From Arsenophonus apicola (GTDB taxonomy: Bacteria > Pseudomonadota > Gammaproteobacteria > Enterobacterales > Enterobacteriaceae), in assembly GCF_020268605.1 (NCBI RefSeq), contig NZ_CP084222.1:2464856-2504855 (forward strand): a DNA stretch of 40,000 nucleotides, read 5' to 3'. Positions 8,843-38,743 of this stretch are shown here, piece after piece (within the stretch, counting starts at the first letter, position 1; each line of letters starts with the position of its first letter). The position numbers and the translations under genes are program-made. The notes beneath the pieces were generated by a model, which had not been told where the DNA came from, did not search any database, and was given only the letters and a program-made list of their open reading frames with translations.

Positions 8843-9177
8843 GCGCCATCCAGACTGCCACAGCTAAATTGCTGAACAAACTTGAGCGCTTCAATCAATG
8901 ATTGCGTGGATTTGGTAGTAATTAATTCCTCTGCGGTGGGCAATTCTTCTGTGGGTAAGGGTTTCCCTGCTTTATCGCAAAGTGTTTTTAAAATCAGGTT
9001 TGCTCCCGCAATACTTGCCTGTGTGTTAGAGCCACTGTCTTGCGCCTGTTTTAATGCTTGCTCATAGGTATCTAGCTCTGCAATTGTTAAGCGGCGTAGA
9101 TAGACTTCAACATCAAAAATAGCATGTTTTTCAACATAGCTATCCGGTGCCAATAAGCGTGCTTTAAGTGATGTCAT
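8830..9177 (-). CDS. Tail assembly chaperone (gpG-like)
   Basis: 115-aa acidic protein between the major tail and tape measure genes. It ends ...GAKKN* on an A8 run. Confidence 0.75.
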   Translation of the reverse strand: MTSLKARLLAPDSYVEKHAIFDVEVYLRRLTIAELDTYEQALKQAQDSGSNTQASIAGANLILKTLCDKAGKPLPTEELPTAEELITTKSTQSLIEALKFVQQFSCGSLDGAKKN

Positions 9178-9228
9178 GTTATTTCCTACCCTTTATGTGT
9201 TCTTGTTCTTTGTGCTGTCAGTTGTTAA

Positions 9229-9279
9229 CTTTGTATTATCCGCCGTAAATTTCGTCGTATCGGCGGTTATGACTTTGGG
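9229..9279 (-). repeat. Copy A of a 51-bp element that covers the last codons and 3' flank of the major tail gene
   Basis: 46/51 identical to 13999..14049. Minus strand: CCCAAAGTCATAA CCGCCG-15nt-CGGCGG ATAATACAAAG. Confidence 0.7.
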
Positions 9280-9731
9280 GGTACCGTTCCCCAGGTGAGA
9301 TTATTCTGTTTGCCTTTCACCGTAATTTGAATGACTTCACTTGCAGGGGCATTGATGTCATTCATCTCCCAACCTGATAATGACAGAACCATTGTCGCTG
9401 TCCGCTTGTTTGGCAACTCAACATAAAGCTGAACCGTTTCTCTCTTTTGCGCCGCATTTAAAAATGCCGTAAAATTTTCATTTTCCGGATCATCAACAAA
9501 ACCTAGTGATTTTTCTGGGCCTTCTGGCAAGTCAGATATAAATTGTTTATTTTTATCGATTAGTACTGTACAGTCGATAAAACTGCCGCTTAATCCTGTC
9601 GCACCTAATGTTTTACAGTTTATTAGTGGCTTCATTTGCTCAACTGTCTCATCGGGTTTACCGAATTTTACTATTGTACCAGCGGGTAACTTTGCATATT
9701 CCGGTGAGGATTTTACATGTTCTTCAGCCAT
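9267..9731 (-). CDS. Major tail (tube) protein
   Basis: 154 aa, lying between the neck genes and the chaperone gene. Assigned by position. Confidence 0.7.
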   Translation of the reverse strand: MAEEHVKSSPEYAKLPAGTIVKFGKPDETVEQMKPLINCKTLGATGLSGSFIDCTVLIDKNKQFISDLPEGPEKSLGFVDDPENENFTAFLNAAQKRETVQLYVELPNKRTATMVLSLSGWEMNDINAPASEVIQITVKGKQNNLTWGTVPPKS

Positions 9732-9863
9732 TACTGACTCCTTAAATTAAAAAAATAGTGTTCGAAAGCCGCGTTGATTTACGCAGACATTTAATTAAGT
9801 GAAATTTTTAGGGATATTTAGTTGCGGATGGATAAGATGATTTTTGTTTTAATTAATGAATTG

Positions 9864-10277
9864 TTATCGATAATTTTCAATACTATTGCGGATTTCTTCT
9901 GTTAGTGTGTTAAGCACAAACTGGCGGTTATAATCGAGCGCTGGTCTGATAAATGGGCGTGCGATCTGTTTAACTGTGCCAAATTCTTGAAAACGCGCTT
10001 TCATTGCATGTTGTTTGGATGGACTAACTCGTATTGTTACTACTGTTTGCGTTTTATTATCATTTATCCTGCTATTTGTACGTATTTTAATGCTATCTCG
10101 CATATGTTCTTTGTTACTTAAAACGTTATAACCAGCATGTAATTTCATGTCTTCTAACACCGGTTTCATCGCTTCTCGTCCAGCATCACGCAGAACTTTA
10201 ACAGCAATCTCATCGCCTAGTTTTTTTAATGCGTATTCAAGCTCTCTTAAGCCTTTAATTTCTACTCGCGTTCTCAT
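9864..10277 (-). CDS. HK97 gp10-like neck / tail-completion protein
   Basis: 137 aa. Pattern VEIKGLRELEYALKKL...FQEFGT...ARPFIRPAL is typical of the HK97 gp10 family. Confidence 0.7.
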   Translation of the reverse strand: MRTRVEIKGLRELEYALKKLGDEIAVKVLRDAGREAMKPVLEDMKLHAGYNVLSNKEHMRDSIKIRTNSRINDNKTQTVVTIRVSPSKQHAMKARFQEFGTVKQIARPFIRPALDYNRQFVLNTLTEEIRNSIENYR

Positions 10278-10663
10278 TCTGCATCCTCAGCGTATGTCAG
10301 TATAAAATCACGACCAATACGATAAATCTTACGGTTATCTGTCTGCTCTTCCATATCTTGCCAAAAATTACCTCGTTCTACCGTTTGCACCGGATAATTT
10401 CCTAAATAACCATGTTCGATACTTTCCCATTCGTCACGGATTTTATCGCTTATAAGTAGTGCTTTTTCATAATCATCAGCTAACTGAACAACAACTTGAA
10501 ATCTGGCTTGTACCAGTTTAGTTTTTGCTAATCCGGTAAACATTTTGGGATCACTGACGCGAAGATAAACTATACCCTCTAAATGATTGGACGGTAATGC
10601 AACATAATAAGTGGATAATCCACTAATTCGTTCTAAATCGTTTTTTATATCAGTTTCTATCAT
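10274..10663 (-). CDS. Neck / tail-terminator-like protein (DUF3168-like)
   Basis: Start taken at MIETDIKNDL (ATG 10663), giving a 14-nt overlap with the upstream gene instead of the longer 149-aa track ORF. Confidence 0.55.
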   Translation of the reverse strand: MIETDIKNDLERISGLSTYYVALPSNHLEGIVYLRVSDPKMFTGLAKTKLVQARFQVVVQLADDYEKALLISDKIRDEWESIEHGYLGNYPVQTVERGNFWQDMEEQTDNRKIYRIGRDFILTYAEDAE

Positions 10664-19043: not shown

Positions 19044-19247
19044 TTAATGTTTATGTTTAGCTGCACTCTTCGCCCATCGTTTAGCCTGATTGAGACAATC
19101 TTCTAGCATCTTGCCTCGTCTGCTTGCTGGCTGTTTGCGGTAGTACCGGATAGCTTCATTTGTTGCTGTTGCTGCTATCGATGAAGAAAAGCCGAGCTTC
19201 ATTAACTCGGCCTTGACATTGATTTCGATGAATTGTTCGGGGGTCAT
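19044..19247 (-). CDS. Hypothetical small basic protein
   Basis: 67-aa ORF. Its start overlaps the stop of the upstream Rha-like gene. Confidence 0.45.
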   Translation of the reverse strand: MTPEQFIEINVKAELMKLGFSSSIAATATNEAIRYYRKQPASRRGKMLEDCLNQAKRWAKSAAKHKH

Positions 19248-19807
19248 CCTTCTATCCTCCTGCTACCCCCACCAATTAAATCAAGGGGTATTTGAGATAA
19301 CTCCATTACTGTTTTTTCAGCTTTTTTAAGAATGGGTAAATCATCTTGACGCTTGCGTAATCTTCTCCCTGCATCAGACGAATCTTCATCAGACGCTTTT
19401 CGGGCGGTAGCCACAATGTTTTGTAATTGTTCAATAGTAAAAGCTAATCCTTTATTTTCTTCTAAATCGGTCATGTAGTCATAGACTTTGGCTTGTAACT
19501 CATAGCTATAGCTCATTGCCATCAGACAGGCTTCACGCTTAGGGAAGTGATAACAAGGAAGGTCACGACCCGTGCTGTCTTTGTACTGAGCAAAAAATTT
19601 TGCTGAGTACTCACCTAACACTTTCGGTACTTTTGTAAGAAAGCTTCGATGTTGTAATTGTCTGTATTTCTCACACGGAAAAGCCAAACCTTGACTTTTT
19701 GCTTTTGATTCACGTTCAGCATTAATGTAATCCACCATTTCCAGACTGGTCATTGTTGGCATTTCTGTTACTAAAAAATTGTCATTTTTAGTTGTTACTG
19801 CTTTCAT
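19244..19807 (-). CDS. Rha-family phage regulatory protein
   Basis: Start taken at MKAVTTKNDNFLVTEMPTMTSLEMVDYIN (ATG 19807, RBS AAGGAAAAG) rather than the 242-aa track ORF. The N-terminal region resembles Rha/pRha domain proteins. Confidence 0.6.
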   Translation of the reverse strand: MKAVTTKNDNFLVTEMPTMTSLEMVDYINAERESKAKSQGLAFPCEKYRQLQHRSFLTKVPKVLGEYSAKFFAQYKDSTGRDLPCYHFPKREACLMAMSYSYELQAKVYDYMTDLEENKGLAFTIEQLQNIVATARKASDEDSSDAGRRLRKRQDDLPILKKAEKTVMELSQIPLDLIGGGSRRIEG

Positions 19808-19945
19808 CGTACTTTTCCTTATAGAAAATCGAACCTGCTCACACAGAAAAGCCGCCCACAGAAAAAGCACCATTTTTAAACGGCAATTCTCAGGCTCGAC
19901 TTTCTGTAAGGTTCTGTGTTTGATTAATGCGCGGTGAGGGCGCGT

Positions 19946-19979
19946 TGAAATAAGAGGACTCCTTAGCGCCAAGGAGTCC
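19946..19979 (-). terminator. Candidate intrinsic terminator after the lysis cassette
   Basis: Minus strand: GGACTCCTT-GGCGCT-AAGGAGTCC (9-bp stem) followed by TCTTATTTCA. Confidence 0.45.
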
Positions 19980-27469: not shown

Positions 27470-27826
27470 TTAAAGTTGGATATGATGTTTGCAGGCTCCA
27501 TTGTTTTTTAACTCTGGAGCTTCTTTTTTTGGCAATCTCAAATGTTCCAGCATATCTATCAGCTTGCGTATCTCTTCACCTGAGATATTTGTTATGACTA
27601 AATCCTGCTTCGGTGAATCGTACCCTATGCAATCAAGCAGTCTTGCCATCTTAGGAATTATTCCATCCTCTGACTGCCATCTCGTGATTTGAGAAGGATT
27701 TATGCCAATAGCGTGAGCAATTCTTATTGCTGAATGTGCCTGAATGCCATTGCGTATTTTGGCTTCAATATTTTTTGCATTTGATTTGCGTGTAATTGTG
27801 GTTTCCATGTCTATAATTAATTCCAT
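27470..27826 (-). CDS. cII: CII-like transcriptional activator
   Basis: The HTH and following helix (AIGINPSQITRWQSEDGIIPKMARLLDCIG) parallel lambda CII (AVGVDKSQISRWKRDWIPKFSMLLAVLEWG, as I recall it). It is directly downstream of cro and nutR. Confidence 0.65.
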   Translation of the reverse strand: MELIIDMETTITRKSNAKNIEAKIRNGIQAHSAIRIAHAIGINPSQITRWQSEDGIIPKMARLLDCIGYDSPKQDLVITNISGEEIRKLIDMLEHLRLPKKEAPELKNNGACKHHIQL

Positions 27827-27926
27827 AAGTTTCAGATAATAGTATTCCCTCCCGATGGGCTGGGAATTTATAAATCTCCCAATTTCAGGGAGGCCAAGTT
27901 GTTAAAGAGCGGTGTAAATTAGTTCG
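27823..27926 (-). repeat. Copy 1 of a ~100-bp repeat spanning the cro 3' end, nutR and the cII start
   Basis: Near-identical to 31291..31393, with only a handful of substitutions. Confidence 0.8.
27876..27911 (-). promoter_or_regulatory. nutR-like site 1 (boxA CGCTCTTTAAC plus boxB hairpin CTCCC-TGAAATT-GGGAG)
   Basis: Minus strand, directly after the cro stop. boxA matches the consensus. The boxB stem-loop carries a GAAA-containing loop 8 nt downstream. A second hairpin lies at 27844..27867. Confidence 0.6.
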
Positions 27927-28119
27927 ATTTTTGCTTGTTACTATTTGATGGAAAAGGTTTTATTTCTATTGCCTCAATTCCATTCTTAGTGAAATTTAAA
28001 AAAATTTTCCGATGTTGCTTCAATGCTCTGCTAACGGCTCCTTGGGTAATACCAAGTTCCTTAGCAGTTGTTTCTTGTCCATGTCGGTTTACATAATCCT
28101 CAATAGTAATTTTGTTCAT
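27919..28119 (-). CDS. cro: Cro repressor, module 1
   Basis: 66 aa, MNKITIEDYVNRHGQETTAKELGITQGAVSRALKQHRKIFL...IKPFPSN. It is collinear with lambda Cro ([38 protein letters not shown]...VKPFPSN). Confidence 0.85.
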   Translation of the reverse strand: MNKITIEDYVNRHGQETTAKELGITQGAVSRALKQHRKIFLNFTKNGIEAIEIKPFPSNSNKQKSN

Positions 28120-28142
28120 CCGAATCTCCTTTTAGATATATT

Positions 28143-28205
28143 ATTACATTCGGTAATAACGCATGTCAATACCGAATGTATTTCTATAATATGATCAACG
28201 GTAAT
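28143..28205. promoter_or_regulatory. OR1: three operators of type ATTAC-N5-GTAAT with divergent pR1 / pRM1 promoters
   Basis: ATTACATTCGGTAAT lies at 28143..28157, AATACCGAATGTATT at 28168..28182 and the half-conserved ATGATCAACGGTAAT at 28191..28205. Centres are 25 and 23 bp apart. pR1 on the minus strand is TTGACA-17-TAATAA. A plus-strand TATAAT lies at 28185..28190. Confidence 0.6.
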
Positions 28206-28216
28206 AAAATAAGAGC

Positions 28217-28696
28217 ATGAATAAGAAAAAACCTTTGACAAAAGAACAGCTAGATGATGCAAAAAGATTGAAATCAATCTACATGCTAAAAAAAAATGAA
28301 CTTTGCATCACTCAAGAAGATATAGCAGATCAATTAGGTATTGGTCAGGCTGCGGTTAGTCATTATCTAAATGGTGTAAATCCTTTAAATGCAAAAACTG
28401 TAGCTCTATTTGCAAAACTATTAAAAGTAAAACCAAATGAGATCAGCCCATCGATAGCTTTAGAGTTAGAAGAAATAGCAAAATTAATGCTACCAACAGA
28501 TCATAGTTATATGATACCTGATAATTCATATACCAAATTAACAAAAACAGAAGAAAAGCTTTTAGATATGTTCAATGCATTAACAGAAGATGAACAAAGA
28601 AATTATCTAGAAGAAATTGCTGAGACTCGGGCTAATCTTGAACGAATCTATAAAGAAATGAAAGAAAAAGAGAAAAAATCCAAAAGAGCATCGTGA
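28217..28696 (+). CDS. cI: CI-like repressor, module 1: lambda-CI-type N-terminal HTH domain and a short helical C-terminus, with no S24 peptidase domain
   Basis: 159 aa. KKKPLTKEQLDDAKRLKSIYMLKKNELCITQEDIADQLGIGQAAVSHYLNGVNPLNAKTVALFAKLLKVKPNEISPSIA is collinear with lambda CI residues about 4-85. The protein ends after about 70 more residues. Confidence 0.8.
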   Translation: MNKKKPLTKEQLDDAKRLKSIYMLKKNELCITQEDIADQLGIGQAAVSHYLNGVNPLNAKTVALFAKLLKVKPNEISPSIALELEEIAKLMLPTDHSYMIPDNSYTKLTKTEEKLLDMFNALTEDEQRNYLEEIAETRANLERIYKEMKEKEKKSKRAS

Positions 28697-28774
28697 TGCA
28701 TTTTTTAGAAATACAACCATTAAACTTATCTAAACAGGCATGACTATTTAGATTTTTATACAAAAGGACACTCT

Positions 28775-29614
28775 ATGAAGGTTAGTTTTTGGGCTTATTA
28801 TGCAAAAAATGATATCACTGATATAACAAGTAGAATTAATTTAACTCAGGCGATCAATGACAAAATAATAAATAAAAATTCTCATTCGCTTGAGTCTGGT
28901 AGTGACTATATATACTTACATCCTATAAATGCACAAACCTTTTTGTTTACTAAAACAAATGATTCTGAGCTAATAAAAAAAATTAACCAAACAAATAATT
29001 CAATTAACGATATCCGCGAAAGTTTAGCTGATGATGAAATACTAGGGTTTTCTTCTTTTGTTTTTATTGAAAATAGCATTTTAGGTTTTGTATCGACAAA
29101 TTGGAGCCCTAGAACGCGAGAATTTTGTGATTTTATAAAAAGTAAAGAATTGCTACAGCCTAACGAAAGCCTAATAGTTGAGCCTTTAATGCAAGGGATT
29201 ACTAAAGTTGATGCATTAAATATGAATTTTATCGGCAGAACGACTTTGAGGATTGAATCAGAAAACTCATTAACTAACAACATCCTCAGAAGTATTGGAG
29301 CTAAAAATGTAAGTGATGTGCTATTGAATGAAATTGAAATAATCATCAAACCTAAATATCGTAAAAATATTCAAAAATTAACAAAAGAAATTCTAGCAGC
29401 TAGCTATGATAAAATTGATGACATAAAAATTAAAGGCAAAGAATCAGCAGCTGATAAACTCACAGAATATTACTTAGATGGTAAAGGTCACATTGGCGCT
29501 AAAATAATAAAGAAAAGTTCTAACGCTGACATTGCTGAAGAAATTTTAGCTACGTACATTAGACTTAAACCATCTATACTTGAGTCTTTTAGAAAGATAG
29601 AATGTGAATTATAG
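28775..29614 (+). CDS. rexA: RexA homologue (abortive-infection/exclusion)
   Basis: 279 aa, the same length as lambda RexA. It shares blocks I recall from lambda RexA (TFLFTKTND, SLADDE-LGF, EPLM-G-TK, FIGRTT, IKPK, NA-IAEE). It sits directly after cI. Confidence 0.7.
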   Translation: MKVSFWAYYAKNDITDITSRINLTQAINDKIINKNSHSLESGSDYIYLHPINAQTFLFTKTNDSELIKKINQTNNSINDIRESLADDEILGFSSFVFIENSILGFVSTNWSPRTREFCDFIKSKELLQPNESLIVEPLMQGITKVDALNMNFIGRTTLRIESENSLTNNILRSIGAKNVSDVLLNEIEIIIKPKYRKNIQKLTKEILAASYDKIDDIKIKGKESAADKLTEYYLDGKGHIGAKIIKKSSNADIAEEILATYIRLKPSILESFRKIECEL

Positions 29615-29647
29615 CCGTATAAATTATATCATAGTGGGAAATATTTA

Positions 29648-30088
29648 ATGAACAAGTTGATAAAAATAGCATCAGCTATAATTCTATTTTCAATCCCATA
29701 CTTAATTACATTCCCAATTTTTTGTTGGTTTAAATATTCATTAACACCAAATCTATCTTTCTCCCTACACAGGGATGTTCTTGGTGCCACAGTTAGTTCT
29801 TATTCAAGCGCTCTTATTGCGGTACTTATAGTTGGACTCACATTTCTATTAGGGATAAAAAATAATAACTTCATTAAATTGCAGCAATACGGATACATGT
29901 TACCAATAATAACACTCTATGCTCTTACCTTTGTAGAGTTGGGAATATTGTTTTTTGCGGGTATAATTCTAATATCGAATTTTAAAGAATTACCATTACC
30001 ATCAATGGCTGCAATCATGGTTGTAACCTCATTTATGCACTTATGTTTATTGATACTTCAGCTGTATAATTTATCAAATAGAAAATAA
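29648..30088 (+). CDS. rexB: RexB homologue (polytopic membrane protein)
   Basis: 146 aa with four hydrophobic segments. It shares recalled lambda RexB blocks (HRD-LGAT-SSY, LTFL-G, YGYM, YAL-FVELG-LFF, QLYNL). Confidence 0.7.
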   Translation: MNKLIKIASAIILFSIPYLITFPIFCWFKYSLTPNLSFSLHRDVLGATVSSYSSALIAVLIVGLTFLLGIKNNNFIKLQQYGYMLPIITLYALTFVELGILFFAGIILISNFKELPLPSMAAIMVVTSFMHLCLLILQLYNLSNRK

Positions 30089-30108
30089 CCCTCCGCCCGA
30101 GGGTTTTT
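30087..30108 (+). terminator. Rho-independent terminator of the cI-rexA-rexB operon
   Basis: AACCCTC-CGCCC-GAGGGTT followed by a T5 run immediately after the rexB stop. Confidence 0.7.
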
Positions 30109-30281
30109 ATCGCCCTCTCACCACCCTCTACCTCACATACACTCTAATATCAACATAACTAACCCATACCCTAATATTCTCCATAGCTTTACTCTTCTTA
30201 TTTGTTTTAACCATCTCTTTATATCGCTGACAAAAATAATCCTTTTAAAATCATTCAATAAAAATGAAATAATGAATTTAT

Positions 30282-30323
30282 AATATTTTCGGTATTGACT
30301 TTATTTATTACCGAATGTAATAT
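30282..30323 (+). promoter_or_regulatory. OL1/pL1: two module-1 operators overlapping the promoter TTGACT-17-TAATAT
   Basis: AATATTTTCGGTATT lies at 30282..30296 and a perfect ATTACCGAATGTAAT at 30307..30321. The -35 is at 30295..30300 and the -10 at 30318..30323. The operator family is the same as in OR1. Confidence 0.6.
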
Positions 30324-30461
30324 CACCCCATCAACTCACTGCAACAGGCAAACGCCAGACAATACCACGAGTTATCTGAAACTTTGCCAAACGTTGCTAA
30401 GTAGCCAGCCCGAGGCATATGAACATGAAGGCAAGTGTAGTTCATCAGTACCTAAGTCATT

Positions 30462-30500
30462 CGCTCTTTAACATATTGGAATCACCGCTCTGAATAAGCG
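30462..30500 (+). promoter_or_regulatory. nutL-like site 1 (boxA CGCTCTTTAACA plus candidate boxB CGCT-CTGAATA-AGCG)
   Basis: boxA lies at 30462..30473. The weak hairpin at 30486..30500 has a GAA-containing loop. The site is in the pL1 leader upstream of the N-like gene. Confidence 0.45.
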
Positions 30501-30648
30501 TTAGAGCAACCCCACCAAGTGAGTTTTGGGGTGTGTGAATATAACAGAACAGTCAAATCTCGTTTTTACATCAGGGAATAAACAGACTGTGAGTAAAAAC
30601 CGTAAGCATCCCGGCACACACCACTAAAACTTATTTAGGAGAAACAAA

Positions 30649-30963
30649 ATGGCAACCATTATCTTTAAACCTAAAAAAGACAATGCTAAATCCCGTCGCC
30701 TGGCAAAACAAATGGCATTCTGGGATAGAAAACGCGCTGAATACGAAGCGAAACCTAAGCCACGTTCTACAGAGCAAATCCTTGATTCCATATTCAACAA
30801 GCAGGATGACACCGTTAATACCATTGCATCACTCACTCTCAATCTAAAAGACAGAAAGCCTCAGCCTTCATTTGATAACTGTTGTTTACCGAATACTTAT
30901 CTTTATCATACAAATAAGGCATCAAAAAACTTATTGAAAATACTCGCCGCACGTGCAAAATGA
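30649..30963 (+). CDS. N: N-like antiterminator, module 1
   Basis: 104 aa and the first gene after pL1/nutL1. Has a basic N-terminal arginine-rich stretch (KSRRLAKQMAFWDRKRAEYEAK). The C-terminal motif FDNCCLP is shared with the second N-like protein. Confidence 0.55.
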   Translation: MATIIFKPKKDNAKSRRLAKQMAFWDRKRAEYEAKPKPRSTEQILDSIFNKQDDTVNTIASLTLNLKDRKPQPSFDNCCLPNTYLYHTNKASKNLLKILAARAK

Positions 30964-30997
30964 AATTTAAGTCATCGGAAAGCGGACGATAAAATCA

Positions 30998-31252
30998 ATG
31001 AATTACATTGTAAAGTGTCCAATATGTGGAAAAAAGTTCAATGTTAAAAATCCATCAAAACATATCAATGCTTATCACCCTGATGCATCTGAGCAAGATT
31101 TAATAGCAATTAGAGATGCTCGTAGAAGTTTGCTAGGAAAACCGATTAAAACTCATCATAAGACTAAACATTATCTTTTAAAAAACATCACAAAGCATGA
31201 TGGTAAAAAGCCTTTTAGTGGTGGACTTCCATCACTTGGAAAAAAAAGATGA
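30998..31252 (+). CDS. Hypothetical small zinc-finger-like basic protein
   Basis: 84 aa. CPICGKKF...HINAYH is a C2H2-like arrangement. Confidence 0.45.
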   Translation: MNYIVKCPICGKKFNVKNPSKHINAYHPDASEQDLIAIRDARRSLLGKPIKTHHKTKHYLLKNITKHDGKKPFSGGLPSLGKKR

Positions 31253-31290
31253 TTTGATAGTCTTTGCAGCAATCTTATCCTACACTTAAT

Positions 31291-31393
31291 CCATAAGTTT
31301 TAGATAATAATATTCCCTCCCGATGGGCTGGGAATGTAAAATCTCCCAATTTCAGGGAGGCCAGGTTGTTAAAGAGCGGTGTAAATTAGTTCG
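31291..31393 (-). repeat. Copy 2 of the cro-3'end/nutR/cII-start repeat; the cII remnant is reduced to ATG GAT TAA
   Basis: Aligns with 27823..27926. Contains boxA (31368..31378) and boxB (31343..31359). Similarity fades about 10 nt beyond the vestigial cII ATG at 31294. Confidence 0.8.
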
Positions 31394-31589
31394 TTTTTTG
31401 CTTGATATTGCTTGACGGAAAAGGTTTTACTTCCTCAGCTTCAATTTTCCCGTCATCATGGATAAGAACAGTAATTCTTCTTCTCATACGGAGCGCTTTA
31501 CTTATACCACTTTGGTATAAACCTAGCGCTTTAGCTGTTTTTCCTTGTCCATGCAGTTTTACATATTCAAGTAAAGATAATCGTTTCAT
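31386..31589 (-). CDS. cro: Cro repressor, module 2
   Basis: 67 aa, MKRLSLLEYVKLHGQGKTAKALGLYQSGISKALRMRRRITVL...EEVKPFPSS. Its recognition helix (YQSGISKAL) is closer to lambda Cro than that of module 1. Confidence 0.85.
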   Translation of the reverse strand: MKRLSLLEYVKLHGQGKTAKALGLYQSGISKALRMRRRITVLIHDDGKIEAEEVKPFPSSNIKQKTN

Positions 31590-31615
31590 TAAAATCTCCC
31601 TTGGCTTGCTTTTAT

Positions 31616-31679
31616 TATCACTTGAAGAGATTTTATTGTCAACACCGCTAAAGGTTTGAAGTTATTCCTCTAGGTGATA
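31616..31679. promoter_or_regulatory. OR2: three lambda-like 17-bp operators with divergent pR2 / pRM2
   Basis: TATCACTTGAAGAGATT lies at 31616..31632, TCAACACCGCTAAAGGT at 31639..31655 and TATTCCTCTAGGTGATA at 31663..31679. Centres are 23 and 24 bp apart. pR2 on the minus strand is TTGACA-17-GATAAT. A plus-strand TTTGAA-17-TAAAAT ends 7 nt before the cI2 ATG, so the mRNA may be leaderless. Confidence 0.65.
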
Positions 31680-31690
31680 AAATTATTTAC

Positions 31691-32149
31691 ATGAAAAAGA
31701 AACCATTAAATCAAGAACAGCTAGCTGACGCTAAGCGATTAAAAGCGCTATTTAATGCGAAAAAGAAGGAATTAGGTTTATCTCAGGCCGTAGTTGCTGA
31801 TCACCTTGGAATTGTACAAAGTGCAGTAAATTCTTTGCTAAATGGTGTTAATGCACTTAATGCACGCAACGCTGTTGCTCTTGCAAAATTATTAAGGGTG
31901 TCTGTAAATGACTTTAGTCCATCTATTGCAAAAGAAATAGCGATGATGTATCAAACTGTGGATGTAAATGATCCAAACATGAATTTAGTCCATGATTTAT
32001 CGCAACAAGAAAAAAATTTATTGCAAATGTTTAATGAGTTACCACAAAAAGAAAAAGATAAATTTATAAGTCAAATTAATTCGAGAAAAAACGAACTTGA
32101 TCAGCTTTATGAAGAAATGAAAGCCGTTAAAGAAAAGAAAGCTTGTTAA
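31691..32149 (+). CDS. cI: CI-like repressor, module 2: same truncated architecture, different recognition helix
   Basis: 152 aa. [82 protein letters not shown] is very close to the lambda CI N-terminal domain. The C-terminus is homologous to that of module 1 ([16 protein letters not shown]...LYEEMK). Confidence 0.8.
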
Positions 32150-32219
32150 TTTTTTATCCCTCCAATTTATATATTTTATTATCTTAAAATCAATAAATTA
32201 GGTTTCTTCTGCATAAATA

Positions 32220-32262
32220 AATCTCTTGCGGTGTTGACTTTTAAATCTTAAAAAGTGATACT
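32220..32262 (+). promoter_or_regulatory. OL2/pL2: two lambda-like operators and the promoter TTGACT-17-GATACT
   Basis: AATCTCTTGCGGTGTTG lies at 32220..32236 and AATCTTAAAAAGTGATA at 32244..32260. The layout mirrors lambda pL (TATCTCTGGCGGTGTTGACA...GGTGATACT, as I recall it). Confidence 0.65.
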
Positions 32263-32395
32263 TATCTCCATCAACTCACTGCAACAGGCAAAAGCCAGAC
32301 AATACTCCGAGTTATCTGAAACTTTGCCAGACGTTGCTAAGTAGCCAGCCTGAGGCGTACGAACATGAAGGCAAGTGACGACAGTTAAGCAATAC

Positions 32396-32428
32396 CGCTC
32401 TTTAACATCCTTTCGCTGAAAAAGCGAA
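32396..32428 (+). promoter_or_regulatory. nutL-like site 2 (boxA CGCTCTTTAACA plus boxB TCGCT-GAAAA-AGCGA)
   Basis: boxB is a 5-bp stem with a GAAAA pentaloop, the same loop as lambda nutR boxB (GCCCT-GAAAA-AGGGC). Confidence 0.65.
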
Positions 32429-32582
32429 CCACAAAACACCCAAACAGTCGGTTTTGGGGTGTGTGAAATAACCAAAATAAAGTCATTCTTCTAATGCCAA
32501 TACCAGGGTAATACCTGCATGATTGTAAATTTGACTGGTTAGCCCTATCACACACCACCAAAACTTATTGTCAGGAGGTAAT

Positions 32583-32924
32583 ATGTGTAACTTTCATGGT
32601 TATGATAATGCTCGTCGTCGTAGAAATGAGCGTAGAAGATCCAGGCAAGCAGCTTATGAATATAACAGAGCACTTAATATGGCACTGAAAGCAGCCTTAA
32701 ATCGAAGCAAGCCCTCTCAGCAACAAACACCAACAAATACTAAACGCCCTATCCTTTCACTAAAAAGAAAAGTGATTAATCGTGTAGAAAAAGCAATATC
32801 AATTCGTCCTACTAAAGTTTATGACGCATTTAATAACTGCTGTTTGCCTATAGCAGCTTTGTATACTTCTAGACGTTTTCACAGTAAACCTAAATCCAAC
32901 TTTGGAGTCACTGCTAACTGTTAA
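32583..32924 (+). CDS. N: N antiterminator, module 2 (lambda N-like)
   Basis: Start at ATG 32583 with AGGAGG 5 nt upstream; the track used an upstream TTG. The arginine-rich motif is NARRRRNERRRSRQAAYEY. The block KRPILSLKRKVINRVEKA parallels lambda N NRPILSLNRKPKSRVESA. Confidence 0.7.
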   Translation: MCNFHGYDNARRRRNERRRSRQAAYEYNRALNMALKAALNRSKPSQQQTPTNTKRPILSLKRKVINRVEKAISIRPTKVYDAFNNCCLPIAALYTSRRFHSKPKSNFGVTANC

Positions 32925-32934
32925 AGGTATAAAA

Positions 32935-33459
32935 ATGATTTTGACGGTCGATAAAAAAGCACTTCTCAGTGCAATGATTTTTCAGGCTAAATGTGATATC
33001 AGATATTATCTAAACGGCATTTGTTTTGCCCCTGAAAAAAAGCTGTATGCTGCTGACGGTTATCGAGTTTTTATTGGTGAGCATGAGACTGAATCGCTAC
33101 ATGAAAGCGTGATAATTTCAATTAAAGGCGCAAAATTTACTCGCTTTGACAAGGCACAGATTGATACCCAATATGGAATTGTGACCTATCTTGATAAAGA
33201 CGGGTTACGCGTTGGTGCAGCAATCTGTGAGGTTATTGAAGGGAAATATCCTGACATTAACAGAGTAATTCCTAAAGAAAGCAAGCCCGTTTCAGAGATT
33301 GGCTTCAATGCCAGCTATCTTGCGGATATCGAGAAAGTAGCAAAAATTTATAACCCGAAATATAAATCAATAAAAATTAAACCTAACGGTAATGACAGTG
33401 CCGCAATTGTCGAGTTAAACAAAAACACATCCGTAATCATCATGCCGATGAAGATCTAA
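32935..33459 (+). CDS. Small protein with DNA polymerase III beta-clamp-like motifs
   Basis: 174 aa from ATG 32935. KYPDINRVIP resembles the DnaN FPDYRRVLP motif and the flanking beta-rich sequence is similar in character. The assignment is tentative. Confidence 0.4.
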   Translation: MILTVDKKALLSAMIFQAKCDIRYYLNGICFAPEKKLYAADGYRVFIGEHETESLHESVIISIKGAKFTRFDKAQIDTQYGIVTYLDKDGLRVGAAICEVIEGKYPDINRVIPKESKPVSEIGFNASYLADIEKVAKIYNPKYKSIKIKPNGNDSAAIVELNKNTSVIIMPMKI

Positions 33460-33545
33460 TTACCGTTTGACATCTTCCTCGCCCTGGACGACAGGATTTT
33501 ACGGCATATATGATAAACCTGAATCACATTTTGGAGTCACCGCTA

Positions 33546-33797
33546 ATGGATGAAAACAAAAAAATAATACAAGTTCAAATTGTTGCTGATGTTAGCGCAA
33601 AATGTAACTATATCGTAGATATGACCGAAGAAGATTATAGAAAATTTGAAAAAATTATTGATTCACAAATGACATCCAGAGAGATGAATAATGCAATTCT
33701 TGATATAGCCTGCAAATATGGAATTTATGACAATATCGACTTCAACGAACCTGAGGACACTGAATTCCATCGGATTGGCGCATCAACAATCTATTAA
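33546..33797 (+). CDS. Hypothetical acidic protein
   Basis: Start placed at ATG 33546 behind the conserved TTTTGGAGTCACCGCTAATG linker. The track ORF starts 12 codons earlier, inside the linker repeat. Confidence 0.45.
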   Translation: MDENKKIIQVQIVADVSAKCNYIVDMTEEDYRKFEKIIDSQMTSREMNNAILDIACKYGIYDNIDFNEPEDTEFHRIGASTIY

Positions 33798-33885: not shown

Positions 33886-33905
33886 TAATATTGTCAGGTG
33901 AAAAA

Positions 33906-35634
33906 ATGAGTAAAAATATGCCAACAATGAATTTTGATACTAAAAATCAATCTTTTAATGAATTATTAAGTCCTTCATATAACTACATTGTCCCTCCTTT
34001 TCAACGTGATTATTCTTGGGAAGAGTCTGACTGGAATGAACTTTGGCAAGACATAGTAAGTTTACTAAACGATGAGCCATATTCTTTTCATTATATGGGT
34101 TACCTGGTACTACAAAGCGAAGATACAAAAAATTTTAAGATTGTTGATGGGCAACAAAGGATTACAACCATTAGTATAATAATTCTAGCTGCATGTTCCA
34201 TATTTGATGATTTAATAAATAATAATATTGATACAGAACAAAACAAAACAAGGAAAGAAAAATTTATAAGTAGTTATATAGGTTATACAGATCCTGTTCT
34301 AATCTGTGAACATACTAAATTACAACTAAATAAAAATAATGATAATTACTATCAAACTTATTTAGCTACATTAGCAAAGTTACCACAAAGAAACTTAAAT
34401 AACTCAGAGCATAAATTAAGGAAATCATTCTTTTTCTTCAAAAAAGAAATGGAAAATTATTTGTCTGAAATTCATGATAAAGGAACAGGATTAGCAAAAT
34501 TAATTGTTTTATAACAGAAAAGCTTTGCTTTACAACAATTACGGTAAGTAATGAAATCAATGCATTTAAAGTTTTTGAAACTCTAAATGCCAGAGGAGTA
34601 AAATTATCATCTACTGATTTATTAAAAAATTATATATTTTCAATTATTACTAACGAAAGTACTCATAATAATGAACTACGCCACTTAGAAAATAGATGGG
34701 AAAGAATTGTATCTATATTAGGAAACGATGAACTTACAGAACTTGTTCGCATTTATTGGAATAGCAAAAATAAATTAGCAAGAAAAAAAGAATTATTTAA
34801 AACGATAAAATCAACAATCAAAACAAAAGAGGACGCCTTTAATTTATTAAAAGAAATAGATAATTGCGCAGAAGTATACTCTGCTTTAAAAGATACTAAA
34901 GACTCCAATTTTTGGGATGATGAAGAAAAACATTACCTTGAATTACTATTCAATATATTCAATGTCAAACAACCATTTTCAATGCTTATTGCCTGCTATA
35001 ATGCATTTTATAACAATGACAGGAAAGGATTTAAAAAAATATTAAAATATATAACAATAATAACATTTAGATATAATATAATTTGTGGAATGCTTCCTCA
35101 TGAACAAGAAAGATTATATAGTTCAATATCACAAGGAATTTCATTAGAAAGTTATGGTGTTTCAAAAGTATTGAAAAATTTAAAAATTAAATTATATCCA
35201 TCAGATGATACATTCAAAAATGATTTTTCAAATAAAATAATAAAGACTGGTAATAATAGAAATACAAAACTTATAAAATATATACTTACTGAAATAGAAA
35301 AAAGTATAACAAATAGTACATCATACTATGATTTAAATACGGTAACTGTAGAGCATATTTTACCAAAATCTCCATCTGATGAATGGAATATTGGAAACGA
35401 TTATCATTTTGATAACCTAGTACATAGGATAGGTAATATGTGTTTATTAGCTAGCAATGACAATAAAAAGATAGGAAATAAATCCTTTGAGTATAAAAAC
35501 CATCCTATATCAATAGTAAATTTGATATAACAAAATACATTGGGAGTAATTATGAAGAATGGAATGAAAATTCAATAATAGAACGCCAAAAATTCTTAGC
35601 AAAAAAAAGCATTAAATATCTGGTCACTGAATGA
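33906..35634 (+). pseudogene. DUF262 (ParB-like NTPase/nuclease) plus DUF1524 (His-Me/HNH-like) protein, GmrSD-type type IV restriction/defence enzyme, broken by at least two 1-nt frameshifts
   Basis: Frame 0 reads IVPPFQRDYSWEESDWNELWQDI ... VDGQQRITT and stops at 34514. Frame -1, open from 34481, reads FKVFETLNARGVKLSSTDLLKNY ... TVEHILPKSP...HRIGNMCLL...NKKIGNKSF and stops at 35530. The next -1 frame, from about 35497, reads INSKFDITKYIGSNYEEWNENSIIERQKFLAKK. The shifts sit at T/A runs near 34495..34510 and at A5 35495..35499. Confidence 0.65.
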
Positions 35635-36323: not shown

Positions 36324-36581
36324 ATGAGATTGGACAATCCACGCATTGTAACAGCAAAACACCCTAATATGGGTAATCTGGTTGGGGTGACTAATGGCAG
36401 TCGCCATTTGAGCGATTCAATATACTTAAGCAGTATTGATATTAGTGATGATGATGACAGAGAAGTACGCTCTTTTAAGACAATCATACAGTGCTTAACA
36501 AATGAAAATGATCGTCTTAAGAAAGAGAACCGAAGACTCATGAAGATATACCGTGGAATTGGCGGGCTGTGCAGGATTTGA
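36324..36581 (+). CDS. Hypothetical protein with an acidic stretch and a C-terminal coiled coil
   Basis: 85-aa ORF with AAGAAGGA upstream. Its last 22 nt overlap the tRNA-like element on the other strand. Confidence 0.4.
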   Translation: MRLDNPRIVTAKHPNMGNLVGVTNGSRHLSDSIYLSSIDISDDDDREVRSFKTIIQCLTNENDRLKKENRRLMKIYRGIGGLCRI

Positions 36582-36632
36582 ACCTGCAATAAGTAAACTT
36601 CATTTACTGCTTTACCATTCAGCTAACAGTTC
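36560..36632 (-). tRNA. Degenerate tRNA-like element (anticodon-loop GAA, Phe-like), probably a pseudo-tRNA
   Basis: Minus strand: GAACTGT TA GCTG AATGGTA AAGC AGTAA ATGAAGT TTACT TATT GCAGG TTCAAAT CCTGC ACAGCCC G CCA. The T-arm, anticodon arm and encoded CCA are perfect. The acceptor stem has two A.C mismatches and position 26 is missing (73 nt). Confidence 0.4.
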
Positions 36633-36640
36633 ACTGACAA

Positions 36641-36973
36641 TCATAAGGCAGGCATCAAAAAGGCTTTTACCACAAGAGAAAGGATACCTAAAATACCCGC
36701 CCCCAACATCCAGCGTATTAATTTTTGTTCAGCACGAATTCCTGACATCTCTAGCTGTAGGTCTTTGCGGACTATTTCCATGTCTTTACGAACATCAGAT
36801 ATTTGCGCGCTTAAATCTTTGCGGACATCATCTAAATCTCTCTTTGTTGCTACATCAACCGCTTCGTGTGACTCACGCACAGCAATAGAAATCGCTTTCG
36901 CCTGTTCTGTTGGTAATCCAGCGCTTTCAAGCGTTTCAACAAATTTTAGTGTATCAAATGCAACCTGACCCAT
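36641..36973 (-). CDS. DUF1640-like coiled-coil protein with a C-terminal TM anchor
   Basis: Start taken at MGQVAFDTLKFVETLESAGL (ATG 36973, RBS GGAGGA). Has a repeated VRKDL motif and the terminal hydrophobic segment WMLGAGILGILSLVV. Confidence 0.6.
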   Translation of the reverse strand: MGQVAFDTLKFVETLESAGLPTEQAKAISIAVRESHEAVDVATKRDLDDVRKDLSAQISDVRKDMEIVRKDLQLEMSGIRAEQKLIRWMLGAGILGILSLVVKAFLMPAL

Positions 36974-37015
36974 AGGTAATCCTCCTTTTTGGTAAGTATA
37001 ACCTAACAATAACCA

Positions 37016-37045
37016 TTGACGAAAGAACAAATCATGCGCTATAGT
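37016..37045 (+). promoter_or_regulatory. Candidate promoter of the antirepressor-operon leader / small RNA
   Basis: TTGACG (37016..37021), 18-nt spacer, TATAGT (37040..37045). Confidence 0.4.
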
Positions 37046-37051
37046 TTATTT

Positions 37052-37129
37052 GCATCTGCAAAATCAGATGTCGGGATTCGAAACCCGTCAGTGTGTACCG
37101 GCCAATAACACGCCGAATGCGTGTTTTTT
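37052..37129 (+). ncRNA. Candidate ~78-nt small RNA or terminated leader with three hairpins
   Basis: Hairpin 1 is CATCTG-CAAAAT-CAGATG. Hairpin 2 is CGGG-ATTCGAAA-CCCG. Hairpin 3 is the terminator AACACGC-CGAAT-GCGTGTT plus T6 (37107..37129). The coordinates are predicted, not measured. Confidence 0.3.
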
Positions 37130-37287
37130 ATTGGTCATAACCTAGTCACATATCAATGGTGGCTCAGGTAGGGGAACCGTAAGGTTCGCCGGAGGTACAC
37201 CGGTATTTCGAACCCTGTCTGGGCTACCACCACGAGATTCGAAACTCCAGTGGTAGCATTTATCTAAATGTACCATTGGAGGTCAAT

Positions 37288-37821
37288 ATGACCACTCACT
37301 CATCCCTTGTTATTCCTAAAGTTAGTATTCACAAAGGTAAAGCGATTACCACCTCACAAGATGTAGCCGAATACTTCAACAAGCGCCATGACAACGTTCT
37401 ACGTGCTATCGGCAGTCTTGAGTGTTCATCTGAGTTTCGTCTCCTCAATTTTGAGGAGACGTTCTACATACGAGAAAATCCCAACGGTGGAGATGGGATC
37501 TCAACAAAGTGCTACGAAATGACTAAAGACGGCTTCGTATTCTTGGTGATGGGATTTACCGGAAAGAAAGCCGCTCAATTCAAGGAAGCCTACATTGCTG
37601 AATTTAATCGCATGGAAGCACAATTACACAATGCTGTTACCGTAACAGGTAATACAAACAAAATTCTTCTCACTTTACTTCCCAATGGCAAAGTAGATAG
37701 CGCAAGAGTAATTCATGATAATGAATATGTCGCTTCACTAGAGTCACTCTTCGAAATTGGTCGTCGTGCTGGTTACATGATCATTCACAAAGATGAATTA
37801 ATCAAAAAATTATCAGAATAG
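37288..37821 (+). CDS. Rha-family regulatory protein / putative antirepressor
   Basis: ATG 37288 follows GGAGG; the track used an upstream TTG. AITTSQDVAEYFNKRHDNVLRAI...YEMTKDGFVFLVMGFTGKKAAQFKEAYIAEFNRME is the Rha (pRha) domain pattern. Confidence 0.7.
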   Translation: MTTHSSLVIPKVSIHKGKAITTSQDVAEYFNKRHDNVLRAIGSLECSSEFRLLNFEETFYIRENPNGGDGISTKCYEMTKDGFVFLVMGFTGKKAAQFKEAYIAEFNRMEAQLHNAVTVTGNTNKILLTLLPNGKVDSARVIHDNEYVASLESLFEIGRRAGYMIIHKDELIKKLSE

Positions 37822-37918
37822 CTTACTTTTCCTTAGCACGTCTCCGTTTCAAACGGAAGCGTGCCGCAAATTAATAATACCAATATTCAATCATCAATTA
37901 ACTTTGAGGAATTTCTAT

Positions 37919-38743
37919 ATGCAAAATTTAATCAATATAGAAACAAAAAACATCAGTGGTGAATTAATCCAAACGGTTAATGCCCGTGATTTACATGCGT
38001 TTTTAGAAATTACTACGCGATTTAATGATTGGATAAATAGGCGTATAGCAGAATATAGTTTTGAAGAGAACATTGACTATATTATTGCTGAAAATTTGAG
38101 CTACTCAAATTTGAGTAGTGCAAAATCTCGCCAACGTATGATGAAAGACTACTATATCGCCATCGATATGGCGAAAGAGCTATCCATGGTTGAACGCAAT
38201 GAAAAAGGGAAACAGGCAAGGCAGTATTTTATTGAATGCGAAAGACGTGTTTTACAACCTCAACTTCACATTCAAACATTACTACCAACAAAAAAAGAAC
38301 TCGCTCTCATGGTTGTTCGTGCTGAAGAAGAGAAAGAACAGTTATTACTGGAAAATAAAAGTCTCTCAACCGAAAACGATTGTCTTAAAAATCTCTTTAA
38401 GGAAGGTATGACCCCTACCCAATTTAGCAAAATGCTTAATGGCGTAAACAGTCAGCAGATAAATCATTTTCTGGCAGAGAGGAAGTGGCTCTACAACGAA
38501 AGTAAATCCGGCATACGCTGGCGTGTTGCTTCTTATGCACGGGATAAATATTTAACCGAAAAACAAAGCGAAATAAGCCCACACGGTGCTGACAGATTCA
38601 TTAGTTATCAACCTGTATTACTCAAAAAAGGGGCGCGACGTCTCTATGATTTGTATCTGGATTACAAGCTGCCCATGAAACTGACGTGGAATGGTTCACA
38701 TACTCATGACAAGTCCATCCAGGGTATTCACCTGAAGCACTGA
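37919..38743 (+). CDS. AntA/KilAC-type antirepressor
   Basis: ATG 37919 follows GAGGA. The N-terminal AntA-like block is VNARDLHAFLEITTRFNDWINRRIAEYSFEENIDY. The C-terminal part is KilA-C/ANT-like. Confidence 0.7.
   Translation: MQNLINIETKNISGELIQTVNARDLHAFLEITTRFNDWINRRIAEYSFEENIDYIIAENLSYSNLSSAKSRQRMMKDYYIAIDMAKELSMVERNEKGKQARQYFIECERRVLQPQLHIQTLLPTKKELALMVVRAEEEKEQLLLENKSLSTENDCLKNLFKEGMTPTQFSKMLNGVNSQQINHFLAERKWLYNESKSGIRWRVASYARDKYLTEKQSEISPHGADRFISYQPVLLKKGARRLYDLYLDYKLPMKLTWNGSHTHDKSIQGIHLKH

Follow-up and report, generated by a model that had tools for sequence, protein, structure and literature searches.

The lambda switch is the textbook example of a single bistable circuit. More than one immunity locus per phage is known from P22 (immC, together with immI and its ant gene) and from P1 and P7 (immI, with a c4 antisense RNA and ant), where the antirepressor unit lies outside the main immunity region and is preceded by a small RNA of the C4/isrK type. 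Lambdoid mosaicism is also well described, and in the lambda imm434 and imm21 hybrids the immunity cores are swapped via conserved flanks while the specificity of the antiterminator N co-varies with boxB. In Salmonella, antirepressors act to remove lambdoid repressors that cannot be cleaved, and the cleavable repressor of Fels-1 controls the antirepressor FsoA, which removes the non-cleavable Gifsy-2 repressor GtgR (Lemire et al. 2011, PMC3121763). Herein we describe a 40,000-nucleotide (nt) stretch of Arsenophonus apicola (contig NZ_CP084222.1, positions 2,464,856 to 2,504,855), hereafter called the window, whose 27.8-32.9 kb region carries two tandem lambda-type units. The region belongs to one lambdoid prophage of an Arsenophonus-clade bacterium with two self-contained tandem immunity cassettes, and this arrangement is a heritable feature of its phage lineage.

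Each unit has the order nutR-cro-OR (three sites)-cI-OL (two sites)/PL-leader-nutL-N, in which OR and OL denote the right and left operators, PR and PL the corresponding early promoters, and nut the sites used by N. Gene families were assigned by Pfam and PHROGs searches of the open reading frames (ORFs) of the window, by comparison with the PDB for cI and Cro, and by Rfam for RNAs (Table 1). The units resemble the lambda immunity region in gene order and orientation, in a tripartite OR with sites spaced 23-25 base pairs (bp) apart, in an OL that overlaps PL, and in the homology of both cI N-terminal domains and both Cro proteins to their lambda counterparts. Further similarities are the presence of rexAB after cI1, nut sites composed of boxA and boxB, an arginine-rich motif in N2 and the TATCAC half-site in the operators of module 2. 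Unlike lambda, however, this prophage has the whole unit twice in series with different specificities, its repressors end in a short helical pair instead of an S24 domain, module 2 has no adjacent cII, and a conserved 110-nt leader precedes nutL. There is a similar distinction from P22 and P1, where the second locus serves antirepressor control, whereas here the cI/cro/N switch itself is iterated besides an immI-like unit. Likewise, classical exchange in the imm434 and imm21 hybrids replaces the core, whereas in the lineage described here cores also stack in tandem and the stacked state predominates.

The preliminary description of this DNA had proposed two complete modules of different specificity in one prophage, and all of the elements it named were recovered at, or within a few bases of, the positions it gave. 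Every ORF, promoter and operator of both modules is intact in the window. To the left of the immunity region, the minus strand carries replication genes, NinB and NinG, Q, lysis genes and a full set of late genes, and to the right of N2 there is a short early-left arm. Given this gene content on either side, the locus is a single prophage with two immunity units rather than two neighbouring prophages. Module 2 lacks cII-adjacent sequence of its own, and its nutR copy ends exactly at a relic of a cII start (ATG-GAT-TAA, minus strand).

The operators of the two modules form distinct families of 17-mers, TATTAC-N5-GTAATA in module 1 and TATCAC-N5-GWGATW in module 2. Within each module, OR and OL are related as inverted matches (41 nt at 85% for OR1/OL1 and 42 nt at 76% for OR2/OL2), and the PL1-proximal OL1 site (30306-30322) is the reverse complement of the strongest OR1 site (28142-28158). 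The half-site of module 1, TATTAC, has T at position 4 in nine of ten cases, and that of module 2, (T/A)ATC(A/T)C, has C at this position in nine of ten; the lambda half-site is TATCAC. The recognition helix begins with Gln-Ser in both cI and Cro of lambda and of module 2, and with Gln-Ala in cI1 and Gln-Gly in Cro1. In lambda, this serine contacts base pair 4 of the half-site. Thus, residue 2 of the recognition helix of both proteins and base pair 4 of the operator have changed in a coordinated manner, and such joint change of protein and operator is what true heteroimmunity predicts. The difference in operators and recognition helices claimed earlier is confirmed in this way, with the operators now refined to 17-mers.

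Given these correspondences, CI1 and Cro1 are predicted to bind the TATTAC sites of OR1 and OL1, and CI2 and Cro2 the TATCAC sites of OR2 and OL2. Because of this predicted binding, the four early promoters would be held by two repressors. The prophage would then need both repressors to remain silent and would confer dual immunity, although some cross-binding between modules is possible. A third perfect match to ATTAC-N5-GTAAT occurs outside the immunity region at 34538-34552, in the gap of a split gene of the left arm. This match may be due to chance: with two mismatches allowed, 45 occurrences were found against 31 expected, a count reached in 2 of 100 shuffles.

The two units are homologous but old. 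The repressors are 46% identical, as are the two Cro proteins, and N1 and N2 have in common only a short C-terminal motif; the nutR regions (27822-27979 and 31290-31446) are 88-92% identical. A sigma-70 scan ranks PR2 and PR1 as the top promoters of the region and also finds PL1, PL2 and the promoters resembling PRM, the repressor maintenance promoter, at the expected places. The boxA sequence CGCTCTTTAACA has exactly four copies in the 40 kb and none in 100 shuffles; N1 and N2 are each preceded by a copy on the plus strand, and cro1 and cro2 are each followed by one on the minus strand, as expected for nut sites. Both N genes match an N-like family (Table 1), and their Pfam N_peptide matches are below cut-off. 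N2 carries a lambda-like arginine-rich motif, NARRRRNERRR...Y, and aligns weakly (E 0.5) to the corresponding motif of lambda N and to RPILSLxRK..RVE. The GGTGA located 13 nt before the cI2 start codon lies in a sequence that resembles the OR3-cI junction of lambda.

The best-conserved sequence of the region is the PL leader, the 110 nt between the start of PL and boxA, with 37 distinct copies (L001-L043) that are 86-98% identical and share an invariant 3' block ending in GAACATGAAGGCAAGTG. It also contains a conserved TTGCCARACGTTGC, which has the TTGC-N6-TTGC form of a lambda CII site; sites of the type TTGC-N6/7-TTGC are not above chance overall (11 found, 6.5 expected). Neither of two roles considered for the leader is supported. 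It shows no codon periodicity (14/10/8) as a coding sequence would, and as a structured RNA it gives fold z-scores of -0.2 and +0.6 and no covariation in the 37 distinct copies. Rfam likewise yields no leader or nut match, either at the gathering threshold across the whole window or at permissive E-values for 30250-30660. A leader-like sequence of approximately 84% identity (L040, 4001-4080) is present just after a DicA-like repressor of Actinobacillus phage vB_Apl-pPE4. Farther downstream, a conserved long-range complementarity, GTTTTGGGGTGTGTG with CACACACCACYAAAAC, encloses approximately 75-80 nt just 5' of each N start codon (30523-30539 with 30615-30630, and 32451-32467 with 32549-32564), an arrangement that resembles the processed stem of the N leader in lambda.

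A scan for the leader motif in IMG/VR and in one genome per species, after which markers were mapped on all loci, gave matches in Arsenophonus and Candidatus Phlomobacter only. At least 15 non-redundant loci have the canonical frame cII-nutR-cro-cI-leader-nutL-N(1 or 3)-nutR-cro-cI-leader-nutL-N2, in which we call the position next to cII slot A and the other slot B. The hosts are A. nilaparvatae, A. triatominarum (several loci), the Arsenophonus endosymbiont of Aleurodicus (three loci), A. nasoniae (including the complete chromosome CP123504.1), Phlomobacter (three loci), Arsenophonus sp. PmNCSU2021_1 and one metagenome-assembled genome. Six more loci have two cro-cI pairs and N2 only, with the zinc-finger gene zf84 replacing leader-N1. 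Two cassettes in tandem are the usual architecture of Arsenophonus and Phlomobacter lambdoids. Universality in the lineage was considered and rejected, as single-module relatives exist (L054/L055). In addition, a contig of A. triatominarum (contig 11; L016, 1-3500) reads zf84-nutR-cro-cI-leader-N(third type)-nutR-cro-cI(S24)-leader-N2, and the sequence found there upstream of zf84 is preceded by a further cro-cI pair in sibling loci, which suggests that this locus may carry three cro-cI pairs in a row.

Outside the two genera, single modules were seen. Outgroups with one module are Proteus phage Brookers, Providencia phage PSTNGR2lys, and Morganella and Providencia prophages with N1 homologues, and a cro2 homologue, where present (201 phage records), is always single-copy. 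The tandem layout was not found in any INPHARED phage, only tiny fragments of the region matched among 50,697 phage records (megablast and blastn), and our literature searches brought up neither natural tandem immunity regions nor any account of Arsenophonus lambdoid switches. The preliminary description knew of no natural lambdoid with such a layout, and in this respect it stands: no INPHARED phage and no paper that we found shows one. The arrangement is not a one-off.

The same survey bears on whether the tandem could be an assembly artefact, in which two related prophages were collapsed or joined via shared repeats. Many near-identical prophage scaffolds are present in Arsenophonus genomes, the leader and nutR repeats are exactly where short-read contigs break, and an exact-sequence look-up of cI2 found nothing on record (likewise for P0019 and P0036). 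However, a false join through a repeat swaps flanks and makes no tandem, and the frame N-(moron)-nutR-cro-cI-leader-N2 is present in at least 15 independent loci that include CP123504.1 and megabase-scale contigs. Furthermore, the exact N1-zf84-nutR junction occurs in two other assemblies (L057 and L058), there before a different, S24-type cassette, and the cI1-rexAB-leader-nutL1-N1 junction is 99.6% identical in GCA_045399845.1. We consider an artefact extremely improbable, and the chimeric assembly raised as a concern in the preliminary description is effectively excluded by the same frame in many independent assemblies.

The relatives also suggest how the window's arrangement arose. At 93-97% amino-acid identity, the cro1-cI1 cassette recurs in three settings: it stands alone in L054/L055, fills slot B in L056 and fills slot A in the window. 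L054 is located in the Arsenophonus chromosome OZ026540.1, has cro1-cI1 as its sole module and is collinear with the window prophage (primase-helicase 95%, N2 83% and orf185 82% identical), with higBA in place of rexAB. It is, with L055, the kind of single-module relative that had been proposed as a target for searches. L056 is a canonical double locus in which cro1-cI1 occupies slot B, and the PL of this cassette carries an operator of the TATTAC type. The L054 leader region aligns to both leaders of the window (8915-9217 with 30170-30473, and 9033-10298 with 32229-33481), and because of this the window corresponds to an L054-like phage plus a segment of approximately 30474-32407, between the boxA copies. 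Unequal crossover in the leader and boxA with a double-module phage would be expected to yield such a segment. More generally, conserved non-coding scaffolds, the nutR region and the PL leader, border cro-cI cores that are highly diverse; recombination in these scaffolds moves cores between slots A and B, shuffling approximately 21 repressor types, and alters cassette number.

Unequal crossover of co-resident prophages in a decaying endosymbiont could also have left the tandem as a neutral by-product, with one module or the whole prophage non-functional and no integrated logic. The tandem is dispensable to the extent that single-module relatives carry the same cassette; cI or N genes are frameshifted in some relatives, and insertion sequence elements are present in related loci. 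The window's left arm is short, no int or xis was seen between N2 and a tRNA-like gene, and two of its ORFs (33891-34514 and 34982-35530), separated by an AT-rich gap of 470 nt, align with the N-terminal and the C-terminal portion of a single family of 567 positions (phrog_21165), such that this gene is split and probably inactivated. Against neutrality, all ORFs, promoters and operators of both window modules are intact, tandem loci far outnumber single ones in several host species, and N1 is kept intact though nutL1 is its only cognate site. In either slot, most cI and cro pairs have ratios of nonsynonymous to synonymous substitution (dN/dS) of 0.09-0.26, two closely related pairs reach 0.4-0.5, and N1 and N2 have 0.2-0.55; N1 orthologues in relatives are 86-94% identical. 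Both slots are under purifying selection. Moreover, in each of the three phages in which both slot repressors are short and typable, the two C-terminal domain types differ. We therefore judge a neutral origin of this kind to be unlikely.

A second alternative is that one module runs the lysis-lysogeny decision and the other is a defence cassette against heteroimmune relatives, comparable to rexAB or sieB. The hosts carry at least 10 related prophages of many immunity types, which would impose strong cross-immunity pressure, rexAB is also present in module 1, and the position between the modules takes morons (zf84 or a lipoprotein gene). Defence of this type needs a cI gene and a promoter only, however, and here conservation extends to cro, the tripartite OR, OL/PL, nutR, nutL and a second N; nutR2 is among the best conserved elements of the region, with 82-99% identity across loci. 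This explanation seems to us improbable. It and the neutral origin are the main alternatives, and both lose ground because every part of the two units is under selection.

Two intervals of these loci serve as moron slots. The first, between a cI1-type repressor and OL/PL, is filled by rexAB in the window (28775-30088), by higB, a helix-turn-helix antitoxin gene and a 141-amino-acid (aa) ORF in L054 (7573-8839), and by three small ORFs in L056 (8551-9546). The second, between N1 and nutR2, holds zf84 in the window and a 138-aa lipoprotein gene in L004, L029 and L053.

The pairing of N and boxB provides clues to how the two cassettes might be wired together. Three N types are paired with three boxB types across the relatives. 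The boxB type 'a' of N1, GCTCTGAATAAGCGTTAGAGC, is present at both nutL and nutR of N1 modules in relatives, and the third N type (L003, L016 and L027) goes with a GGCWYTCT-loop hairpin at both nut sites, the stem of which is not the same at nutL as at nutR. N2 is paired at nutL with TTCGCT-GAAAA-AGCGAA. Both nut sites of slot A share one boxB in canonical relatives. The slot-B-type 'b' nutR boxB, CTCCC-UGAAAUU-GGGAG, is the sole nutR of the N2-only phage L054 and should for this reason be an N2 site. In the window, both nutR copies are of type 'b' and the N1-type boxB exists at nutL1 alone. N1 could consequently act on PL1 transcripts only, and N2 should have nutL2 and both nutR copies as its sites, as judged by association. 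Since nutR1 copies an N2-type nutR, antitermination from PR1 should depend on N2.

N1 has been kept intact though only zf84, module 2 and the left arm lie downstream of it, which argues that PL1 transcripts are meant to continue. They most likely read through module 2, as a terminator scan found no terminator-like sites on the plus strand between N1 and N2. We propose that N1 at nutL1 would carry PL1 transcripts through zf84, cro2 in antisense and cI2 in sense into N2 and the left arm. A transcript that is antisense to cro2 and sense for cI2 has the geometry of lambda PRE, the repressor establishment promoter, and read-through from PL1 could serve as a PRE-like path for cI2. N2 would then act at nutL2 and both nutR sites, and the PR1 operon (cII, replication genes and Q) would depend on it.

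The preliminary description placed the right arm under cI1 and the distal left arm under cI2. Promoter and operator placement agrees with this assignment, but the N2-type nutR1 and the probable read-through of module 2 from PL1 do not permit so simple a division. A strict form of it, in which each repressor controls its own arm only, there is no read-through and both must be inactivated, would draw support from that same placement and from the need of PR1 antitermination for N2, whose promoter PL2 is under cI2. However, N1 with nutL1 alone would have no target past zf84, no plus-strand terminator separates N1 from cI2 and N2, and N1 in canonical relatives has its own nutR beside cII, so that module A alone could run the right arm. 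We regard this strict version as very unlikely.

The two repressors depart from lambda in their C-terminal domains. Neither cI1 nor cI2 has a Pfam match to Peptidase_S24, the LexA-like autocleavage domain. An AlphaFold (AF2) model of cI1, with a mean predicted local distance difference test score of 85, consists of a five-helix lambda-type N-terminal domain, a disordered linker (residues 92-105), a short helix (110-120) and a 35-residue helix (124-158). The C-terminal domain of cI2 is also short and helical, and belongs to another type by clustering. Both repressors are thus predicted to be non-cleavable. The modules had been called lambda-type, which holds for the cI N-terminal domains; with S24 missing from the repressors, it does not hold for the way in which they would be induced.

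N-terminal domain homologues outside Arsenophonus have S24. Within the group, at 70% identity the repressors form 21 clusters and the Cro proteins 19, and an alignment of cI1, cI2 and P0034-P0052 reveals that the short C-terminal domains reassort among unrelated N-terminal domains. Nearly identical cI1-type C-terminal domains are joined to three different N-terminal types in several Arsenophonus genomes, and the cI2-type domain is also found on a cI1-like N-terminal domain. A shared cI1-type domain could represent a shared antirepressor target and, if its helix dimerises, there would be a risk of heterodimers between co-resident repressors. Slot A always contains a short repressor. Slot B contains either a short repressor or one of 192-247 aa, and three of the long ones tested have S24.

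With both repressors lacking a cleavage domain, induction could proceed via antirepressors encoded downstream of N2, where an immI-like unit lies on the same strand. Its Ant proteins are of the Ant/KilA-N type, are not homologous to the small GfoA proteins, and are candidate inactivators of CI1 and CI2. Twelve relatives have an ant homologue 0.5-5 kb downstream of N2, with a divergent 129-aa ORF ahead of it, and the synteny N2...orf129(-)...small RNA...ant is conserved across the lineage. In several relatives, sRNA-Xcc1 replaces isrK/C4 (L003, 6148-6236; L004, 7388-7475; L006, 9073-9161). No LexA box (CTGT-N8-ACAG) was found near the ant promoter, and the total for the window is at chance level. 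As with the Gifsy and Fels prophages (Lemire et al. 2011, PMC3121763), the lambdoid repressors here have no cleavage domain and are accompanied by an ant gene outside the immunity region. Those systems, in contrast, act in trans between separate prophages and are mostly controlled by LexA, whereas here no LexA box was found at ant and both repressor types can occur in one phage. In relatives with a LexA-like slot-B repressor, SOS cleavage would open PL2, N2 and ant, and the slot-A repressor would then be removed. Arsenophonus phages could in this way combine both Salmonella-type steps in cis.

Table 1. Features of the tandem immunity region and associated elements (positions within the window)
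Feature	Position	Strand	Evidence and remarks
Third ant-like gene	19244-19972		Among late genes
cII-like activator gene	27470-27826	-	Right-hand neighbour of module 1; PF05269 Phage_CII E 3e-7; phrog_191
tR1-like GC-rich hairpin with U-rich tail	27845-27866	-	Between nutR1 and cII; fold
nutR1	27876-27911	-	boxA 27900-27911; boxB CTCCCTGAAATTGGGAG 27876-27892; N2-associated 'b' type
cro1	27919-28119	-	PF09048 Cro E 8e-19; lambda Cro in PDB E 1.5e-13
OR1	28140-28206		Three predicted 17-bp operators, 28142-28158, 28167-28183, 28190-28206; centres 25 and 23 bp apart
PR1	28169 to 28140	-	Sigma-70 match 11/12
PRM1-like promoter	28163-28190	+	Sigma-70 scan
cI1	28217-28696	+	Pfam HTH_3 only; lambda repressor in PDB E 1e-26, residues 2-89
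rexA	28775-29614	+	PF15969 E 2e-52; downstream of cI1
rexB	29648-30088	+	PF15968 E 1e-34
Hairpin terminator	30087-30105		3' of rexB
OL1	30281-30297, 30306-30322	+	Two 17-mers overlapping PL1
PL1	30295-30323	+	TTGACT-17-TAATAT
PL leader copy 1	30328-30437	+	94% identical to copy 2
nutL1	30462-30507	+	boxA 30462-30473; boxB GCTCTGAATAAGCGTTAGAGC 30487-30507; N1-associated 'a' type
N1 antiterminator-like gene	30649-30963	+	phrog_271 N-like E 3e-10
zf84, 84-aa zinc-finger ORF	30998-31252	+	Between modules; phrog_20899 E 2e-19
Second tR1-like hairpin	31313-31334	-	Fold
nutR2	31343-31378	-	boxA 31367-31378; boxB 31343-31359
cro2	31386-31589	-	PF09048 E 3e-24; lambda Cro in PDB E 7e-15
OR2	31614-31683		Predicted operators 31616-31632, 31640-31656, 31663-31679; centres 24 and 23 bp apart
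PR2	31642 to 31614	-	Sigma-70 match 11/12
PRM2-like promoter	31656-31683	+	Ends 7 nt 5' of the cI2 ATG
cI2	31691-32149	+	Pfam HTH_3 only; lambda repressor in PDB E 7e-31
OL2	32220-32236, 32244-32260	+	Two 17-mers overlapping PL2
PL2	32234-32262	+	TTGACT-17-GATACT
PL leader copy 2	32268-32377	+	
nutL2	32396-32428	+	boxA 32396-32407; boxB TTCGCT-GAAAA-AGCGAA 32412-32428; fold z-score -4.05
N2 antiterminator-like gene	32583-32924	+	phrog_271 E 1e-12
orf129, 129-aa coiled-coil/membrane ORF	36641-37030	-	Divergent, 5' of the immI-like unit
immI-like unit	37052-38743	+	Downstream of N2, same strand
isrK (RF01394) and C4 antisense RNA (RF01695)	37052-37234	+	Rfam, 67 bits each; directly before ant
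Two antirepressor genes	37276-37821, 37904-38743	+	PHROGs Ant/Rha E 1e-51 and 6e-51

Two further features of the left arm were observed. A 55-nt direct repeat (75% identical; 32885-32939 and 33514-33568) corresponds to the 3' end of N2, doubled on either side of orf185 (32902-33459), which encodes a beta-clamp-like protein (phrog_3007) and is shared with L054. Because N2 overlaps orf95 directly in relatives, orf185 resembles an insertion at the N2-orf95 junction. A tRNA-Phe-like gene of modest score (45 bits; 36560-36632, minus strand) lies between a pentapeptide-repeat gene and the ant unit, and L053 has a tRNA match at the equivalent place; this gene may be a phage tRNA, a relic of an attachment site or a pseudogene.

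Taken together, the best explanation of the locus is in our view a heritable two-cassette immunity in tandem, with orthogonal repressors, read-through licensed by N1, a PR1 that depends on N2 and induction by Ant, and we hold it to be somewhat more probable than the remaining readings combined. Several observations weigh against it. The nutR boxB loop, UGAAAUU, is unlike the GAAAA loop of nutL2, and its assignment to N2 is by co-occurrence only. PL1 and PR2 are convergent, and collisions are expected if both fire; three terminator-like sites are present on the minus strand between cro2 and cI1. Neither an operator nor a LexA box was found at the ant promoter. There is no close orthologue of cI2, the best match being 52% identical, and relatives show decay, with the slot-B cI fragmented in L009 and L035 and the slot-A cI truncated in L004 and L009. 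Finally, given a left arm with no int or xis and with a split gene, this copy of the prophage may be defective.

More tentatively, the lineage might possess an integrated array of two, perhaps occasionally three, slots, in which PL1 read-through licensed by N1 both establishes cI2 and supplies N2, the slot-B repressor, predicted to be SOS-cleavable in many relatives, gates Ant against the non-cleavable slot-A repressor, and immunity identity is combinatorial. We consider this fuller scheme possible but doubtful. If it is true, approximately 20 repressor/operator types, three N/boxB types and reassorting C-terminal domains would give each phage a combinatorial immunity identity, and at least 10 sibling prophages could thereby share a single endosymbiont genome.

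A lineage in nature that links two full, orthogonal copies of the switch in series, keeps both under selection and swaps cores between slots would show how circuits are composed in nature and how immunity diversifies under heavy polylysogeny. It would also offer ready-made orthogonal parts, namely no fewer than 21 repressor types along with their operators, three pairs of N and boxB, and C-terminal domains that can be swapped. Some Arsenophonus species are reportedly culturable. The arrangement may shed light on the way in which very large prophage loads are maintained and co-induced in insect symbionts.

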